50,233 nt of DNA from positions 1-50,233 of the forward strand of contig CAYLTU010000003.1 in assembly GCA_964386465.1 (NCBI GenBank). The letters run 5' to 3'. The position numbers and the translations under genes are program-made. The DNA comes from an uncultured Rhodospirillaceae bacterium (GTDB lineage Bacteria > Pseudomonadota > Alphaproteobacteria > UBA8366 > GCA-2717185). Of the stretch, positions 1,747-49,944 are shown in pieces (within the stretch, counting starts at the first letter, position 1; each line of letters starts with the position of its first letter). Under the pieces are notes generated by a model. The model worked only from the letters and a program-made list of their open reading frames with translations. It was not told the DNA's origin and did not search any database.

Positions 1747-3811
1747 GACGCGGTCGATTAGGACGCGGTCGGCGTTTCGTCGACCACGGACGGTTACCTT
1801 GCACGTCGGCGACGGTGACAATCCGCGGCCCATCGAGCCAAACGGCGTGCCCGCCGTATCGCCACAGATCGAAGCGATCGATCACCAGATGCGCCGACGG
1901 GCAATTCCAGCGCACCGGTACCGAACTGATCACGACACTCGCACGTCGGCAATCCTCGGCGAGTGAACGCGGGTCCCGTACGAGCGAGACAGTTCGGCCT
2001 TTCGCGCGAAAAATACAGGCCAAACTATCGCATGTAACAACCTTTTCGTCCGCTTGCCACGACCGTACCTCACGCTGCCCGGCGCGGCTAAGCCAGGTTT
2101 TCGCGATCCGCTTCTCGCGCCTGGTCGTCGACAGGACGAGGTCGCCGTTCGTCGTACGCACACCCATCAATCGACCGTCCGACGATATCAGGATATCGGG
2201 CGGCGACTGTAACGAGACGGAAATCAGGCCGGCGGCGAGACCGCACAAACCGGCATAGCGCCAGCGCTCCCGCCAGAGGCAAAGCCACAACCCGCCAATC
2301 GCCGCCGCCGACAGGCCGAAGACTGGCATGGCCGGTGTCAGGCTGACCGCGCCGGGCCATCCTGCCACCTGTTTGGCGATACCGGTGACCAGTTCGATTC
2401 CCCAAGCCATCGGGGTCAGCGCGACCGCTTCCAGTCCGAAAGGCATCAACGCCATCGCGATCACCGCCCACGGCATTATCCAGAAGGCCGTTATCGGCAC
2501 AGCGAGCAGGTTGGCCGCCAGACTGAAATGCGCGATGCGGCCGAAGTGATACAAGGCGAATATGCCCGTCGCGAACCCGGCGACGAGCGTCGTCAGAGAA
2601 ACTCCCGCGAGATAGAGGGTGAATTTCCGAAGCCATCCGCCACCGGCCCAACCACTAAACTTTCCTTGCGCTTTCTCGTAGACCGCCACCAAAGCCACGA
2701 CCGCCGCGAAGGACATCTGAAAGCTTGCACCAAGCAGGCTCTCGGGCGTTAACAGCAGGATCGCCGCGGCGGCCCAGGCGACCAGGCGGAGCGATATCGC
2801 CGTTCGGTCGAGCAGCACGGCGGCGAGAACCAGCGCCGCCATCAGGAAAGCCCGCTGTGTTGGAATCGTCGCACCCGTCAGCAACAGATAACCAAACCCG
2901 CCGAGCAGGGCGGCCGCTGCGGCCCATTTCTTTATCGGGTGCCGCAATGCCAGTCGCTCGCTAATCGCCAGCAGGGCGCGCAGACCGAAAAAAAGCGTCG
3001 CCGCAACGAGCCCCATATGCAGGCCCGATATCGCCAGGAGATGCGCCAATCCCGAGTCCCGCATCGCGGCGATGGTTTCCCGAGGGATCGCGCTTCGATC
3101 GCCGGTGATCAGGGCTGCCGCGACGGCACCGCTCGTACCGGGTATCGCAGCCCTTACGCGCTCGGCGACATTTTGCCGGACAGTCGCTATCCAGATTGAC
3201 AAAGTTCCACCGCTTGCCTCCCTTCCCGATGCTATCTTGCGGGTTGCTCCGTAGGCGTAGCCGACGGCCCCGATCCGAGCGAACCAGGCGTGGCGCTGGA
3301 AATCATAAGCGCCGGGCATCGCCGGAGAGCCGGGTGGCAGCAGTCGCGCGAAGACCATGATCCGCGAGCCAACCGCCGGCAAATCGGCGGCGCGGAGCTT
3401 GATGCGCACGAATTCCGGCGTGCGCGCCGCTGGCAAATTGCGAAGCGAGACGGTATCGAGCAGCACGCGCGGGCCGTTTGCGAACGCCTCTAGATGCCGA
3501 ACACGCCCGCTGACCGCGGCGGTGAGCGGGCGCACCAGAACGGGCGCCGAAACGGACCAGGTGCGTATCTGCGCAGCGGTAAACCCAACTGCGACGAGAC
3601 CAAGTGCCAACACCAACAGCGTGAATCCGGCGCGGGCGCGGGCCAACCAAAGCATGCAACCGGCGGCGCCCAATACGGCAAGCCCGCTCCACAGGGGTGG
3701 CTCGTCACGAAGGGTGAAATAGGCGGCAATACCACAGCCAATCAGAACCGGGCCCCAAAGCGGCCAACGCTCACGCTCGGCAAGAAAACAGCCTGCCAAC
3801 ATAGCTGCCAT
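1703..3811 (-). CDS. comEC: ComEC/Rec2 family competence protein
   Basis: [12 protein letters not shown] motif, [21 protein letters not shown], many TM segments; start uncertain (ATG 3811 or TTG 3820). Confidence 0.92.
1742..1771. repeat. 15-bp perfect tandem duplication ATTAGGACGCGGTCG x2
   Basis: Units at 1742-1756 and 1757-1771; first unit contains the lexA stop; encodes [10 protein letters not shown] in ComEC on the minus strand. Confidence 0.9.
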
Positions 3812-4009: not shown

Positions 4010-5422
4010 ATGGCCGTCGTCACGCGCTTTGCCCCCTCGCCGACCGGGTTCCTCCATATCGGCGGCGCGCGCACCGCGCTGTTCAATTGGCTTTACGCCA
4101 AACACCATGGCGGTGAGTTCCTGCTGCGCATCGAGGACACCGACCGCAAGCGCTCGACGCCCGAGGCAATCGACGCGATCCTGGAGGGGCTGCGCTGGCT
4201 CGAACTGGATTGGGATCGGGACACAGTCTTCCAATCGAAGCACGCCGAGCGGCATGCGGAAGCGGCGCACGAACTCTTGGCGCGGGGCCGCGCCTACCAT
4301 TGCTACTGCTCCGCCGAAGAGCTGGCGGAAATGCGCGAGGCCGCGAAACGCGAAGGCCGCTCGATGCGTTACGACGGCCGCTGGCGCGACCGCGATCCGT
4401 CCGAAGCGCCGGAAGGCGTCGCGCCCGTCGTCCGGCTCAGGGCGCCGCTCGAAGGTGAAACCGTCATCGACGACCAGGTCCAGGGGGCCGTTCGTGTCGA
4501 TAACAGCCAGCTCGACGATATGATCCTGTTGCGCAGCGACGGAACGCCGACCTACATGCTTTCCGTCGTCGTCGACGACCACGATATGGGCGTCACTCAT
4601 GTCGTTCGCGGCGACGATCACCTGACAAATGCCGCGCGGCAGACCCAATTGTTTCTCGCCCTCGGCTGGGAACCGCCAACCTTCGGCCACATTCCGCTGA
4701 TTCACGGTGCCGATGGACAGAAACTTTCCAAGCGGCACGGCGCGCTGGGCATCGACGCCTACCAGGAAATGGGCTATCTGCCGGCCGCCCTGCGCAATTA
4801 CCTGTTGCGGCTCGGTTGGAGCCACGGCGACGACGAGATCATCTCGACGGAAAAAGCGATCGAATGGTTCGACCTCGACGGTGTCGGTAAATCGCCGTCG
4901 CGGATCGATTTCGCGAAACTTGAACACGTCAATCAACAGTATTTGCGCGAGACGGACGCCGCGACGCTAATCGACCTGCTATTGCCGCGATTGACCGGAG
5001 GCACGGACGAAGCGATCAGCGAAACCGTTCGCGCAAGGCTCGAAGCCGGCATCGGTGGATTGACGGAGCGGGCCAAGAACCTGAACGAACTCGCCGATAT
5101 GGCGCGCTTTTACGCCTATGCGCCCGCCTATCCCTTGGAGAACGCGAAAGCGGCAAAAATCCTGGATGGTGACGGTCTCAACTACCTTACAGCATTCTTG
5201 GACGCTTTGGGTGCGGTCGACAACTGGACACAAGAGTCGCTGGAACAGGCAGCGCGCGATTTCGTCGCGGCCCGGGACATCGGCCTGGGGAAGATCGCAC
5301 AGCCCTTGCGTGCCGCCTTGACCGGTTCGAACGCGTCTCCCGGCATCTTCGAAGTCCTCCAAATTCTCGGCAGGGAGGAAGTGTTGGCGCGCCTGTCGGC
5401 GGTCCCGGGTATCGCCGAATAA
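4010..5422 (+). CDS. gltX: Glutamate--tRNA ligase
   Basis: [15 protein letters not shown] (HIGH), [17 protein letters not shown] (KMSKS); start set at ATG 4010 behind AAAGGA. Confidence 0.96.
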
Positions 5423-21781: not shown

Positions 21782-21925
21782 GATCGTATCCTTTACCGGT
21801 TATACCGCCGCGGGCGAAAGCCGGTTACCCGGCACCGGAGCGGCCACTGCCATGATCGACAGCAGGCGCAAACCCGCGTGAGAGATGGCTGCGGTATATA
21901 GCCAATTTTACGGCCTTGCAAGGCC
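21782..21925 (-). promoter_or_regulatory. rpsB promoter and structured 5' leader (candidate S2 autoregulatory region)
   Basis: On the minus strand, TTGCAA then CTATATA in sigma70-like spacing; ~100-nt GC-rich leader ending AACCGGTAAAGGA before the ATG. S2 autoregulation is established in other bacteria and only inferred here. Confidence 0.5.
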
Positions 21926-34544: not shown

Positions 34545-34812
34545 GGAGCCTGTCCGAGTAATGCTTATGAACTGCATCGGCCAGAGAGTCGTACGTGTTA
34601 GGCGTGGTTGCGCCGGCGATGCCGGCGGCATCGTCAAGCAGCCACAACGCGGCACGCGCGCCTCTCCGGTCGACCCGAAGGGCCGCGTTCTCAAGGGTTT
34701 GGGACGTCGTCCGGCGCCGCTCGCGATGCCCCCGGCATCGCCACGCAACTCCCTCCTAACCCAAACCCTTGAGAACGCGGTGCAGTCTATAAGCATTACT
34801 CGGACAGGCTCC
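34545..34812. mobile_element. 268-bp MITE-like palindromic element, copy 1
   Basis: 24-bp perfect TIR GGAGCCTGTCCGAGTAATGCTTAT, flanked by TTA/TTA (34542-34544, 34813-34815); no transposase; 84% identical to 48791-49058. Confidence 0.88.
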
Positions 34813-35551
34813 TTATAAAGACGTCGCCCGCCGTGATCTTTTGGCGTTTACCGTCCGGCAGTTCCAGCAGCAATGCGCCGTCCGCGTCCATATCGTGGAA
34901 CCGGCCGGTAAGTTCACGGTCCGGCAACCGCACGGTAATTGGCCCACCGATACCCGCAGCCCGGTCCACCCAGGCCCGGCGCACCGGCGCCACCCCGGCC
35001 TCGAGCCAGCGGTCGCGCCAGACGAACAGCCTGTCGAGATAGTGTTCGAGGACGGTATCCAGCGCTACGGCCTTGCCGCAAACGGTTTCCAGATTGGTCG
35101 CCGGATAAGCGGTGTCGTCCGGATGCGACGCTACATTCACGCCGCACCCGATCACGATCCAGGACGCTCCGGCGCCGTTACCCTGCGACTCCAGCAGGAT
35201 GCCCGCGACCTTGCACCCGTCGACGAGTATGTCGTTCGGCCATTTGCACGCAATTTCCGCCGCCGCCGGCAGAACGGCTACGACGGCTTCCGCAAGCGCG
35301 ACTGCCGCGACGAGTGAAAGCTGCGCCGCCTCGCTCGCCGGCTTCCCGGGACGCAGAATCGTCGACGTGTATAGATTTCCGGCTGGAGAGGTCCACGCTC
35401 GGCCGCGCCGTCCGCGGCCCGCCGTCTGCTCGCGGGCCCAGACAACCGTACCGTCCGCCGCGCCGTCGAGCGCCCGCATGCGCGCCTCGTCATTCGTCGA
35501 TCCGACCGATTGGAGTTCGATCAGCGTGCAACCGTCTGGCAGGGAAGGCAT
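34796..35551 (-). CDS. birA: Biotin--[acetyl-CoA-carboxylase] ligase (no HTH); last codons and stop come from the inserted element
   Basis: STND, QTAGRGRRGR.W.SP.GNLY, KWPNDI, KVAGILLE, AGDV. Confidence 0.95.
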   Translation of the reverse strand: MPSLPDGCTLIELQSVGSTNDEARMRALDGAADGTVVWAREQTAGRGRRGRAWTSPAGNLYTSTILRPGKPASEAAQLSLVAAVALAEAVVAVLPAAAEIACKWPNDILVDGCKVAGILLESQGNGAGASWIVIGCGVNVASHPDDTAYPATNLETVCGKAVALDTVLEHYLDRLFVWRDRWLEAGVAPVRRAWVDRAAGIGGPITVRLPDRELTGRFHDMDADGALLLELPDGKRQKITAGDVFIRSLSE

Positions 35552-46972: not shown

Positions 46973-48150
46973 CGGTCGATCTCCCCGAACACGACGTCCA
47001 TGGCGCCCAGGATGGCCACCGAATCCGCAAGCATGTGCCCCTTGCACATGGAGTCCATCGCTTGCAAATGCGCGAAGCCGGGCGCCCGGATCTTGCAACG
47101 GTAGGGTTTGTTCGTGCCGTCGGAAACCAGGTAGACGCCGAATTCGCCCTTCGGTGCCTCGACGGCGGTGTAGGTCTCGCCCGCCGGCACATGAACGCCT
47201 TCGGTGTAGAGCTTGAAATGGTGGATCAGCGCTTCCATCGAACGCTTCATCTCGCCGCGCGACGGCGGTCCCACCTTGCCGTCTTCGGTCATCACCGGTC
47301 CGTCCGGCATTTGCTCAATACATTGCCGCACGATGCGCAAGCTCTGCCGCATTTCTTCCACACGGATCAGAAAACGATCGTAACAATCGCCGTTCTTGCC
47401 GACCGGGATGTCGAAATTCATCTGATCGTAGGCGTCATAGGGTTGCGACTTGCGCAGATCCCAGGGGACGCCGGAAGCTCGCAGCATCGGTCCAGAGAAA
47501 CCCCAGGCCATCGCCTCCTCTTCCGATACGACGCCGATATCGACCGTCCGCTGCTTGAAGATGCGGTTTTCGTTGAGCAGGGTTTCCAGGTCATCGAGAA
47601 ACTTCGGGAACGCGTCGGCCCAGGCAAGAATATCCTCGCCCATGCCGGCCGGCATGTCCTGATGAACCCCGCCAACCCGGAAATAGGCCGCGTGCAGGCG
47701 CGCGCCGCAGGTGGCCTCGTAGAACTCCATAATTTTTTCGCGTTCCTCGAACGCCCAGAGCATCGGCGTCATCGCTCCAACATCCAGCGCCAGCGCCGGC
47801 GCGTTAAGCAGATGGTTGAGTATTCGCGAGATTTCAGCGAACAGCACGCGGACGTATTGGCCGCGCGGCGGCGGTGCGATGCCGAGCAGCTTTTCGGCAG
47901 CGAGCACGAACGCGTGCTCCTGACACATCGGCGCGACATAGTCGAGGCGATCGAAATACGGCATCGCCTGTAGATAGGTCTTGTATTCGATAAGCTTCTC
48001 GGTGCCGCGGTGCAGGAGGCCGACATGGGGATCGATCCGCTCGACGATCTCGCCGTCCATCTCCATCACCATGCGCAGCACGCCATGCGCGGCCGGATGC
48101 TGCGGGCCGAAATTCAGCGTCAGATTCTTGATTTCCGCTTCCGCCGCCAT
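46969..48150 (-). CDS. nuoD: NADH-quinone oxidoreductase subunit D
   Basis: [32 protein letters not shown]; start set at ATG 48150. Confidence 0.98.
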
Positions 48151-48773
48151 CAGCCCTCTTCCGCCTCCGCCTTCTCGTCGCCCGGCAACTCGCGCGTCAT
48201 GCCCTCCCAAGGGCTCAGGTAATCGAAAGACCGGAACGCCTGGGTCAGCTTCACCGGTTCGTAGACCACGCGTTTCTGTTCATCGTCGTAGCGGACCTCG
48301 ACATAGCCGGTGAGCGGAAAGTCCTTGCGCAGCGGATGTCCCTCGAAGCCGTAATCCGTCAACAGGCGCCGCAGGTCGGGGTGATCGGAGAAAAAGACGC
48401 CGTACATGTCCCAGCATTCCCGCTCGAACCAGGAAGCCGTGGGAAACACGCCCGATACCGACGGCACCGGCGTGTCTTCATCCGTGCGGACTTTGATTCG
48501 AACCCGCTGGTTATGCTTGTAGCTGAGCAGGTTGTAATTCACTTCGAAGCGGATTGCCCGCTCCGGATAATCGACGCCGCAAATATCCATCAAGCTCTTG
48601 AACAGGCAACTTGAATCATCGCGCAGGAATTTCAAGGTACGAACCACATCGCCGCCCGCGACTTCAACGTTCAGCTCACTGTTTGTAATATTATGATCGA
48701 GGACAACTGCGCCGAGTGCCGCAACGATATGCGCCCTTAACTCTTCGAGCGCGTCTTGGGTGGCGTCGTTCAT
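48150..48773 (-). CDS. nuoC: NADH-quinone oxidoreductase subunit C
   Basis: [32 protein letters not shown]; start set at ATG 48773. Confidence 0.96.
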
Positions 48774-48790
48774 CGAGCTTCCCGTCTCTA

Positions 48791-49058
48791 GGAGCTTGTC
48801 TGAGTGATGCTTCCGGTCTGCATCGAGCAGAGAGGCGTGCATGTTAGAAGGGGGTGCGCCGGCGATGCTGGCGGCATCGTCAAGCATCCACGACGCGGCA
48901 GGCGCGCCTCTCTGCTCGACCCGAAGGGCCGCGTTTTCAAAGCCTTGGGACGGCGTCCGGCGCCGCTTGCGATGCCACCGGCATCGCCACGCGACACCGT
49001 CCTAGCCCAAGACTTTGAAAACGCGGTGCAAACCATAAGCATCACTCAGACAAGCTCC
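48791..49058. mobile_element. 268-bp MITE-like palindromic element, copy 2
   Basis: 22-bp perfect TIR GGAGCTTGTCTGAGTGATGCTT, flanked by TA/TA (48789-48790, 49059-49060); colinear with copy 1, no indels. Confidence 0.88.
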
Positions 49059-49588
49059 TAACGCGCGATCGTACCGGTGCGCTTGATCTTCTTCTGCAAC
49101 TGCAGAAAGCCATAGACCAGCGCTTCGGCGGTCGGCGGGCAACCGGGGACATAAATGTCCACCGGTACGATCCGGTCGCAACCGCGCACCACGGCATAAG
49201 AATAATGATAATAACCGCCGCCATTGGCGCAGGACCCCATCGAAACGACCCAGCGGGGTTCCGCCATCTGGTCATAGACCTTGCGCAGCGCCGGCGCCAT
49301 TTTGTTGGTCAGGGTCCCGGCGACGATCATCACATCCGATTGGCGGGGACTGCCGCGCGGTACGATTCCAAAGCGGTCCAAATCGTAGCGCGGCATATAG
49401 GCGTGGATCATCTCGACGGCGCAGCAGGCGAGACCGAACGTCATGGGCCACAGCGAGCCGGTCCGCGCCCAGTTCACGACCTTGTCGGCGTTCGCGATGA
49501 TAAACCCTTTGTCGGCCAAGGTATCGTTGACCAGGCTCATCGCGCCTTCGTTGTCGCCCTGCTTGAGCGCCGGAGTATCTACTCCCAT
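49058..49588 (-). CDS. nuoB: NADH-quinone oxidoreductase subunit B
   Basis: [31 protein letters not shown]; start set at ATG 49588. Confidence 0.97.
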
Positions 49589-49944
49589 TCGAGCGCGCCT
49601 TTCCGCCATTCATAGATGAAACCGATCGTGAGGATTCCGAGGAAGATCACCATCGACCAGAATCCGAAGAGCCCGATATTGCCGAGAGAGATCGCCCAGG
49701 GGAACAGGAACGCGACTTCCAGATCGAAGATGATGAACAGGATCGCAACAAGGTAGAACCGAACGTCGAACCGGCTGCGCGCGTCATCGAAGGCTTCGAA
49801 TCCGCATTCATAAGCAGAGAGTTTTTCAGAGTCCGGTTTCTGGTGGGCGAGTATGACACTTGCCACGAGCATCCCGACGGAGATGCCTACGGCGATGGCT
49901 AGGAAAATCAGAACCGGCAGATACTCCCGCAATATGCCGTCCAT
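49579..49944 (-). CDS. nuoA: NADH-quinone oxidoreductase subunit A
   Basis: [36 protein letters not shown]. Confidence 0.97.

Follow-up and report, generated by a model that had tools for sequence, protein, structure and literature searches.

Why should a stretch of 268 nucleotides between two genes of an operon keep pairing with itself, out to its very ends, while its sequence changes? The locus lies in what we call the window, the whole stretch of DNA analysed (50,233 nt of contig CAYLTU010000003.1, from an uncultured Rhodospirillaceae bacterium, assembly GCA_964386465.1 of 608 contigs), which holds two copies, A and B, of the same element. We number the element 1-268; adding 48790 gives window positions for copy B, and adding 34544 gives those for copy A. 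The parts of copy B, its neighbours and copy A are as follows.

48791..49058, plus strand: copy B, 268 nt, between nuoB and nuoC
34545..34812, plus strand: copy A, which folds into the same four-way junction; the genes on its two sides are those of the biotin-protein ligase and type III pantothenate kinase
48789..48790, no strand: left TA of the target duplication of copy B (TA[268 nt]TA in the window versus a single TA in the empty site of congener G001)
48791..48822, plus strand: 5' half of the terminal stem, which is the left terminal inverted repeat (element 1-32); pairs with 49027-49058
48823..48919, plus strand: left arm hairpin (element 33-129), from the folds and the core consensus
about 48843-48900, plus strand: tip of the left arm, the conserved module, bearing AGGAG, GGCGATGC-loop-GCATCGTCAAG and CGACGC
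48920..48928, plus strand: central mini-hairpin CCC-GAA-GGG (element 130-138), from the folds
48929..49026, plus strand: right arm hairpin (element 139-236), from the folds
about 48948-49008, plus strand: tip of the right arm, the reverse complement of the left-arm module, from the tip alignments
49027..49058, plus strand: 3' half of the terminal stem, which is the right terminal inverted repeat (element 237-268), from the folds and covariation
49059..49060, no strand: right TA of the target duplication of copy B; with the complement of base 49058 it makes the TAG stop of nuoB (minus strand)
48150..48773, minus strand: nuoC (30 kDa subunit), the next gene downstream of copy B within the nuo operon, which is on the minus strand (Pfam Complex1_30kDa, E 1e-47)
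49058..49609, minus strand: nuoB (20 kDa subunit), directly upstream of copy B (Pfam Oxidored_q6, E 1.5e-27)

Pfam matches give the order nuoA, nuoB, copy B, nuoC, nuoD, with all genes on the minus strand. Copy A is likewise set among minus-strand genes, in the order biotin-protein ligase, copy A, type III pantothenate kinase, RNase J. The present end of the ligase ORF, at 34796, falls within the element.

An earlier note on this DNA had described the element as a gap-free four-way junction, and RNAfold returned exactly that layout on both strands, with RNA and with DNA parameters. Copy B folds into a stem (1-32/237-268), a left arm (33-129), a hairpin (130-138) and a right arm (139-236), and these helices abut with no unpaired linker. 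Under RNA parameters, the plus strand reaches -175.6 kcal/mol (z -13.3) and the minus strand -184.2 kcal/mol (z -14.7), and on neither strand was any of 200 shuffles as stable; under DNA parameters, the same junction forms on both strands with z scores of -12.9 and -13.1. The apical hairpin that the two arms were said to share, CGATGCY-NNN-GGCATCG, is indeed present on both. That the two strands fold alike follows from the make-up of the arm tips, in which a single module is present in two inverted copies.

Copies A and B align without gaps and differ at 43 of the 268 positions. We found that each of the eight compensatory pairs reported between them was exact: changes on both sides preserve Watson-Crick pairing at 6/263, 11/258, 16/253, 27/242, 37/125, 146/229, 151/224 and 154/221. 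When 43 substitutions were placed at random, none of 20,000 trials reached eight such pairs; the maximum, seven, was reached once. At a ninth pair, 64/97, G.T became T.G; in ten further pairs only one side had changed.

A larger alignment had been named beforehand as a place where the claim of covariation could fail. We aligned 27 full copies of the window's family from three genomes (11, 13 and 3 copies). RNAalifold recovered the same junction, with 103 pairs and 96.5% of paired cells filled by pairs. Two-sided changes occurred in 40 of the 103 pairs, compared with 16.1±2.3 in column shuffles, none of 500 of which reached 40, and with 6-10 when the structure was slid along the alignment. The covarying pairs include 13 of the 30 pairs of the terminal stem, 12 of the 31 basal pairs of the left arm and 13 of the 21 basal pairs of the right arm; at element pair 13/256 (alignment columns 13/260) all four Watson-Crick pairs are seen. 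The CCC/GGG stem (27/27 copies) and both apical hairpins are invariant in sequence within the family. From these results, we conclude that numerous two-sided changes, in the terminal stem as well as at the base of each arm, preserve the pairing.

Paired changes of this kind could arise as a by-product of mutation. Quasi-palindromes are known to mutate in this way, their hairpins templating correction during replication or repair. On such an account, the inverted-repeat hairpins of the element would template their own correction, by template switching or conversion between arms, and would turn a mismatch into a perfect pair in either direction. Several observations fit: a given copy carries the same variant in both terminal repeats (for example C12, C14 and C17 in G005, and C599 and C154 in G000), 96.5% of cells are paired, 11 of the changes private to one copy are compensated doubles, and copy C115 looks chimeric, its left and right ends belonging to different subfamilies. 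However, 24 further private changes are one-sided; 10 of them give G.T and 14 break the pair, 8 of these as A.C, and the near equality of G.T (10) and A.C (8) makes these recent changes look like plain uncorrected decay. Correction also leaves unexplained the persistence of G.T pairs (non-Watson-Crick pairs are retained as U.G at 54/110 in 27/27 copies and as G.U at 72/90 in 26/27) and of an asymmetric internal loop, the mirroring of wobbles between the arms and, across the families and phyla described below, the conservation of length, architecture and modules. Together, the private compensated doubles and the conserved non-canonical features argue against plain decay after insertion, and against templated repair as the sole cause. 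We thus regard a purely mutational origin of the pairing as unlikely, while conversion between inverted repeats may be a contributor to the paired changes.

The distribution of copies indicates that the element is mobile. In the window's genome we counted 11 copies at full length (ten of 268 nt and one of 269 nt), whose identity to copy B is 81-90%; TA adjoins 9/11 of them on the left and 11/11 on the right. The nuoB/nuoC site is uninterrupted in 5/5 congeners examined, with a single TA in G001, and the birA/coaX (biotin-ligase/pantothenate-kinase) site, at which TA or TAA borders copy A, has no insertion in G001 or G003. The window's family occupies other sites in congeners, with at least 13 copies in G005 and 3 in G003. 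Two copies of the window's genome are 99% identical to each other, and one subfamily is 88-96% identical to G003 copies, the flanking nuo genes being 80-85% identical; therefore, at least part of the family has moved recently, or its active lineages are strongly conserved. Among sequencing runs, the locus was found in marine metagenomic DNA contigs only; those from three other studies bridge the junction of left flank and element with 0 differences; two of the three also bridge the right junction, with 0 and 9 differences. One low-depth metagenome contig that lacks the element differs by 18 other letters and thus fits the empty site of a relative, not excision. These data, with the reading-frame evidence below, identify the element as a MITE, a DNA transposon that is non-autonomous, does not code for protein and leaves a TA duplication where it inserts.

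The sole reading frame of the element runs from ATG 75 to TAG 213, and its length, frame and stop are not conserved across families. We rejected the reading of this 46-codon frame as a small protein: the frame is present in 9/10 scanned copies of the window's family, and elsewhere it is shifted, meets a stop at 5 codons or runs off the element. The ATG motif is missing from one of the 11 window-family copies. A discrete host RNA gene, which the earlier note had entertained, is likewise unsupported, because the copies are insertions private to the window's genome and lie inside operons. At the element boundaries, by crude ORF calls, a long ORF running into the element ends in the boundary TA(G/A) on 22/46 sides, one in three being expected by frame, so that we draw a conclusion for nuoB only.

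Iterated nhmmer searches of the window's genome recovered 84 loci with a core of ~160 nt in common, 62 of which hold the whole core. The 60 loci that could be bounded measure 240-288 nt (most 261-275 nt), are mostly flanked by TA or by C-TA...TA-G, with many copies reading C-TA-[element]-TA-G, and fall into at least nine families whose terminal ~35 bp are unrelated. A covariance model of collected copies, built from the window's family alone, nevertheless matched these other families over their full length, at 130-167 bits. Folds of single sequences, which are free of the bias of a model alignment, gave the same junction in 48/51 elements on the model (sense) strand and in 42/51 on the other, with a terminal stem of ~30 bp and three abutting branches of 93-97, 9-11 and 92-98 nt. 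The suggestion that structure rather than sequence is conserved, even in the terminal inverted repeats (TIRs), is thus borne out both by the excess of two-sided pairs within the window's family and by the like folding of families with unrelated ends.

The core has a consensus of its own. The left arm reads AGGAG ... GGCGATG-loop-CATCG.CAAG ... CGACGC, the centre ACCC-loop-GG, and the right arm is the reverse complement of the left module; in 77/78 elements, the left tip gives a better alignment with the right tip when the latter is reverse-complemented than when it is taken as it stands. The core is therefore two inverted copies of a hairpin module of ~60 nt. The AGGAG/CGACGC internal loop is conserved across families, and its sequence suggests that GGAG, facing CGAC, could form tandem G.A pairs with a G-C pair on either side. 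The 78 elements came from 150 model-aligned matches, of which the better strand per place was kept and rows below 245 nt and exact duplicates were dropped. In this set, 93.3% of cells are paired versus 57.2% in shuffles and 99/103 pairs show two-sided changes, in an alignment that was fitted to the structure and leans towards it. Counts of G.T versus A.C wobbles are 233 vs 69 in the left arm, 53 vs 114 in the right arm and 37 vs 41 in the terminal stem, a mirroring that the choice of strand by model score may inflate somewhat.

The central mini-hairpin fared less uniformly. Its GAA loop is identical in both window copies, as the earlier note had stated, but varies in other families (GGA, AAA, TCC, TTC, GCA and others besides GAA), while the third pair of its stem covaries across families (CG 52, GC 9). 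We therefore set aside the special role proposed for a stable cGAAg or, on the other strand, UUCG loop, as the loop sequence is not conserved across families. Together, these results show that the element belongs to a large superfamily of ~260-275 nt with a terminal stem of ~30 bp, two arms of ~95 nt and a 3-bp mini-hairpin, all meeting at a four-way junction that has no linker. The families have wholly different terminal repeats and share their architecture and core.

We found full-length matches to the model in 27/91 genomes of the order (12/30 genera) and, across the class, in 9/151 sampled families. In public genomes, among the matches listed, many of which are chance, nhmmer and the model together identified real elements in contigs labelled Kiloniellaceae, Denitrobaculum, Hwanghaeella and Inquilinus, and, again among the matches listed, in contigs labelled Stellaceae, Geminicoccaceae and Rhodospirillaceae. 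Also among the matches listed are elements of 267-274 nt, mostly TA-flanked, in long contigs labelled Acidobacteriota, Holophagaceae and Terriglobia; these have the terminal stem and the two arms, and some have the central mini-hairpin. The superfamily was not found in the plasmid collection. Rfam gave no match to the element in the whole window or in 15 loci with other families; at E up to 10, only miRNA-hairpin noise appeared, far below threshold. In the literature covered, which takes in journals outside subscription, we found no account of a linker-free four-way junction with a two-module core in many TIR families and in two phyla. Whereas a MITE is commonly recognised by its ends and has an arbitrary interior, in this superfamily it is the ends that differ, and the fold of the interior and the two-module core that stay conserved from family to family, between orders and in two phyla.

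What, then, maintains the fold? We tentatively favor, at a little less than an even chance, the hypothesis that it is selected in transposing lineages, where it would act as folded DNA in transposition by a trans-acting transposase, probably of the IS630/Tc1-mariner type. The constraint would lie in lineages that keep transposing, in line with the 11 compensated doubles, versus 24 one-sided changes, that are private to single copies, and would not serve the host's benefit. Cruciform extrusion, or exposure of a single strand at the replication fork, would let each strand fold into the same junction; the junction would bring both boundaries between element and flank together, and would present the terminal stem, whose sequence is that of the duplex terminal repeat, and one sense module per strand to the transposase. 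The duplication of TA, frequently within CTAG, makes an IS630/Tc1-mariner-type enzyme probable. Mobility would drop if a non-contact position in one TIR or arm strand varied, and would stay low until the partner base changed, which would explain the compensatory pattern. That both strands fold alike with DNA parameters, and that the modules are inverted copies, points to action at the level of DNA. There is a parallel in the T-shaped hairpin of parvoviruses (the AAV ITR), in which an outer palindrome surrounds two small ones; it is read as folded single-stranded DNA, and copying keeps its arms complementary. The likeness is one of architecture only: replicon, enzyme (Rep) and biology are unrelated, and we offer an analogy and claim no kinship.

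Several points stand against this preferred explanation. Cruciform or single-strand folding is a prediction, a bias in the orientation of insertions (below) points to some selection at the level of transcripts, and searches for the enzyme yielded no autonomous element with matching ends. In G000, G003 and G005, no autonomous element with the family termini was found, and a pattern search with the terminal repeats returned MITE-spaced pairs or solo ends. None of 17 transposase loci compared has the termini of the aligned elements of at least 245 nt, save for adjoining MITE fragments. The carriers G000, G005, G055 (complete), G021 and G069 contain no IS630-family match above the curated cut-off (NF033545). 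DDE_3 is represented in the window's genome by a 29-bit fragment only and was not found in G005 (20 contigs), G021 or G037, and DDE_Tnp_1 and DDE_Tnp_1_2 were not found in G055. Metagenome bins often lose IS copies, so absence from such bins is weak evidence.

Candidate partners were rejected on their ends: those of the DDE_3 elements of G003 and G040 and of two IS families of G005 are unrelated, an IS630-like element of G024 (1,063 bp, TA-flanked) does not match the MITE of that genome, and a terminal repeat beside a DDE_3 gene in G066 proved to be a solo fragment facing away from the gene. The earlier proposal to look for genes that co-occur with the element across genomes yielded weak associations and no cognate partner: DDE_3 is present in 14/27 carriers vs 14/64 non-carriers of the order, a weak difference confounded by kinship, and the figure for Y1_Tnp is similar (14/27 vs 12/64, likewise confounded by kinship).

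A precedent for a TA-targeting element moved in trans is RUP of Streptococcus pneumoniae, which is 107 bp long, inserts at TA and is thought to be moved by an IS630-family transposase (Delihas 2008, PMC2229807). As far as the accessible part of that source describes it, RUP resembles our element in being non-autonomous and in inserting at TA; it differs in that its TIRs match those of IS630-Spn1, whereas our searches recovered no IS whose ends match those of the element, and families with different ends have a structured core in common. With at least nine TIR families in one genome, many cognate transposases would be needed if termini were read by sequence.

We also considered a more radical version, in which these are structure-defined transposons: the enzyme would read the conserved junction and the two inverted modules on cruciform or single-stranded DNA, and its cut at the foot of the terminal stem would be set by a constant spacing from the modules and not by a specific terminal sequence. 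This would explain the near-constant length, the free but paired drift into at least nine families of ends, and the missing cognate IS. We consider it distinctly improbable. If true, it would mean that a mode of end recognition, and perhaps an enzyme, has gone undescribed for TA-duplicating transposons across at least two phyla.

The fold could instead be selected in RNA. In this case, only those elements whose transcript collapses into a compact, closed four-way junction would be tolerated, or would be of use, for instance in processing or stabilisation as with ERIC, Correia or bcr1 RNAs. Copies A and B lie on the strand opposite to the minus-strand operons that hold them, so that read-through is unavoidable. 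We counted 18 elements that lie between convergent and 4 between divergent ORFs, and elements face the same way as co-directional flanking ORFs in 13 cases and the opposite way in 28 (p 0.03), both counts resting on crude gene calls. The conserved G.U pairs are also consistent with a role in RNA, and a similar RNA would arise from either orientation of insertion, as a sense copy of the module comes first on both strands.

There is also precedent for such a transcript: bcr1 of the Bacillus cereus group, a MITE-like repeat of ~155 bp with a 5-bp direct repeat, is transcribed, and its cruciform-like RNA fold is kept by compensatory changes (Delihas 2011, PMC3184786). To the extent that the accessible part of this report covers it, bcr1 is, like our element, a small non-autonomous repeat with a target duplication and a cruciform-like fold so maintained. 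It belongs to Firmicutes, a relation in sequence is not expected, and our element is distinguished from it by its 268 nt, TA duplication, linker-free four-way junction, third mini-hairpin and single core under many ends. ERIC and Correia/NEMIS are co-transcribed MITEs whose RNA hairpins affect the processing and stability of mRNA, with orientation mattering (PMC2229807, PMC3184786, in the parts accessible); as described there, each is a single long end-to-end hairpin, unlike the four-way junction with inverted internal modules seen here.

Selection on transcripts is harder to reconcile with other data, however. The copies are insertions private to one species, and compensated doubles occur in single copies, for which selection acting locus by locus on host transcripts would be slow. 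The terminal stem is, moreover, also the pair of inverted repeats of a TA-duplicating transposon, and Rfam holds no matching family. We therefore view an RNA-level explanation as a possibility, albeit on the unlikely side. Whether a branched intrastrand fold serves the transposition of short elements or is kept for a transcript is a testable question that the superfamily raises, and it offers for this purpose a large natural data set of compensatory changes in mobile DNA.

The two inverted modules raise one further alternative, namely that the element is a REP doublet, akin to REPINs, that travels as single-stranded DNA once its modules are recognised by a tyrosine transposase (HUH/Y1, RAYT-type), with the outer stem as an accessory. 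To our knowledge, however, IS200/IS605 and RAYT elements do not insert by TA duplication with long terminal inverted repeats, and the element has both a TA duplication and inverted termini of ~30 bp. Y1_Tnp is found in 14/27 carriers vs 12/64 non-carriers but is not found in four carriers of genus g7, two of them complete (G020, G024, G039, G055). The hairpin module was not found within 2 kb of the three Y1_Tnp loci of the window's genome. Genome-wide, we counted 181 apex motifs, approximately two per element, and free-standing REPs of this kind are therefore few. We thus rejected linkage to RAYT genes, given carriers without Y1_Tnp and no module near the Y1_Tnp loci; the TA duplication and the lack of linkage make a RAYT-type mechanism very unlikely indeed.

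The resemblance to REPs is nonetheless informative at the level of motifs. In several families the module follows a GTAG, and the left apical stem finishes with CGTC, recalling GTAG- and CGTC-tagged REPs (Di Nocera 2013, PMC3733652). The left apical hairpin ends in ...GCATCGTC, with A-T and T-A pairs adjoining, and its CGTC is predicted to pair with GGCG. In the accessible part of the REP literature, a CGTC-tagged REP carries an unpaired CGTC tag at one end, its stem opens with A-T pairs and spans 8-9 bp, and its loop has 4-5 nt; CGTC REPs predominate in Alphaproteobacteria without a known transposase (PMC3733652). The same partial sources describe REPINs, or head-to-head REP dimers, as inverted short hairpins with a conserved spacer for which an alternative 'clover' fold has been proposed (PMC3116915, PMC3733652), and some REP dimers as sitting within longer palindromes (Di Nocera 2013, PMC3733652). 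Our element shares with REPINs the two inverted hairpins and the frequency of compensatory changes, which are common in REPINs (Bertels and Rainey 2011, PMC3116915, as far as accessible). It differs from REPs as described there, which are 20-40 bp long, have no TIRs and no TA duplication and, if GTAG-tagged, flank RAYT genes; in our element each hairpin forms the tip of a 95-nt arm within a TIR-bounded unit. In the accessible parts of these sources, then, the compensatory maintenance of a fold in a MITE (bcr1) or of a hairpin (REPINs), as well as TA-targeting MITEs tied to IS630 (RUP), are already known.

The covariance model and the core motif enable annotation of these repeats in marine and soil genomes, where they sit in operons and at stop codons and break short-read assemblies. 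On a Terriglobia contig, the intervals between clustered copies hold ordinary genes, for a T2SS ATPase and a beta-lactamase-fold protein.

Copy A, the element between the biotin-protein ligase and pantothenate kinase genes, is inserted in the last codons of the former and supplies the new short C-terminus and stop codon of its ORF. The ribosome-binding site of the pantothenate kinase gene, AAGGAG, remains in the native flank of this copy. At copy B, which lies between nuoB and nuoC, the nuoB stop codon is likewise built in part from the element:

34796..35551, minus strand: biotin-protein ligase ORF, its 3' end now 17 nt within copy A (34796-34812)
49058-49060, minus strand: nuoB stop codon TAG, made up of the duplicated TA and the terminal G of copy B

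We found that the base following TA is a purine in every terminal-repeat family; thus, when the TA targeted by an element belongs to a stop codon, either TAG or TAA is re-formed. Among the 46 element sides with a long ORF reading in, the ORF ended at the element boundary in 22 by crude ORF calls, against the one-third expected by frame.

Termini like those of the window's family also occur at two loci from other taxa:

L185 (Acidobacteriota contig), 383-656: element with such termini
L156 (Geminicoccaceae contig), 4331-4595: element with such termini

The termini of these two elements, AGAGCCTGTCCGCG... and GGAGCCGGTCCGGG..., are similar to the ends of the window's family, indicating that certain terminal-repeat types are themselves common to different phyla.

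Members of altered length were found as well. Some of the internally deleted derivatives in G000, the window's own genome, lack the left arm and others the top of one arm, while certain derivatives consist of just the two terminal repeats, making a short hairpin. In the longer member at L088, the added sequence lies in the right arm, which measures 136 nt versus the usual ~95.

G000 C494:1247-1418: deleted derivative
G000 C36:696-865: deleted derivative
G000 C75:20790-20994: deleted derivative
G000 C258:6107-6160: deleted derivative
G000 C6:25546-25581: deleted derivative
G000 C574:1613-1690: deleted derivative
L088 (Denitrobaculum contig), 2935-3245: longer member, 311 nt
G171:C11:16258-16562: longer member, 305 nt

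Copies of different families are grouped within a few kb, both in G000 and in distant taxa, which suggests local hopping or preferred regions:

G000 C31, 8419-8684 and 9001-9266: clustered copies
G000 C157, 3773-4033, 4670-4920 and 11227-11487: clustered copies
L162, L145 and L192: clustered copies

The congener G005 carries an IS5-type element (1,209 bp, 329-aa ORF, ~29 copies) and an IS4-type element (1,298 bp, ~12 copies; loci L250, L255, L256 and L260 for the G005 insertion sequences), and the ends of both proved unrelated to those of the MITE families. At G052:C11:276607-277107 (locus L270), a fragment of DDE_3, the domain used for IS630-type transposases, lies ~100 nt from a full element; here, the element may have inserted in an IS630 remnant.

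The window also contains an Rfam match:

21784-21882, minus strand: match to the rpsB sRNA/leader (RF01815), scoring 44.7 bits where the gathering score is 40
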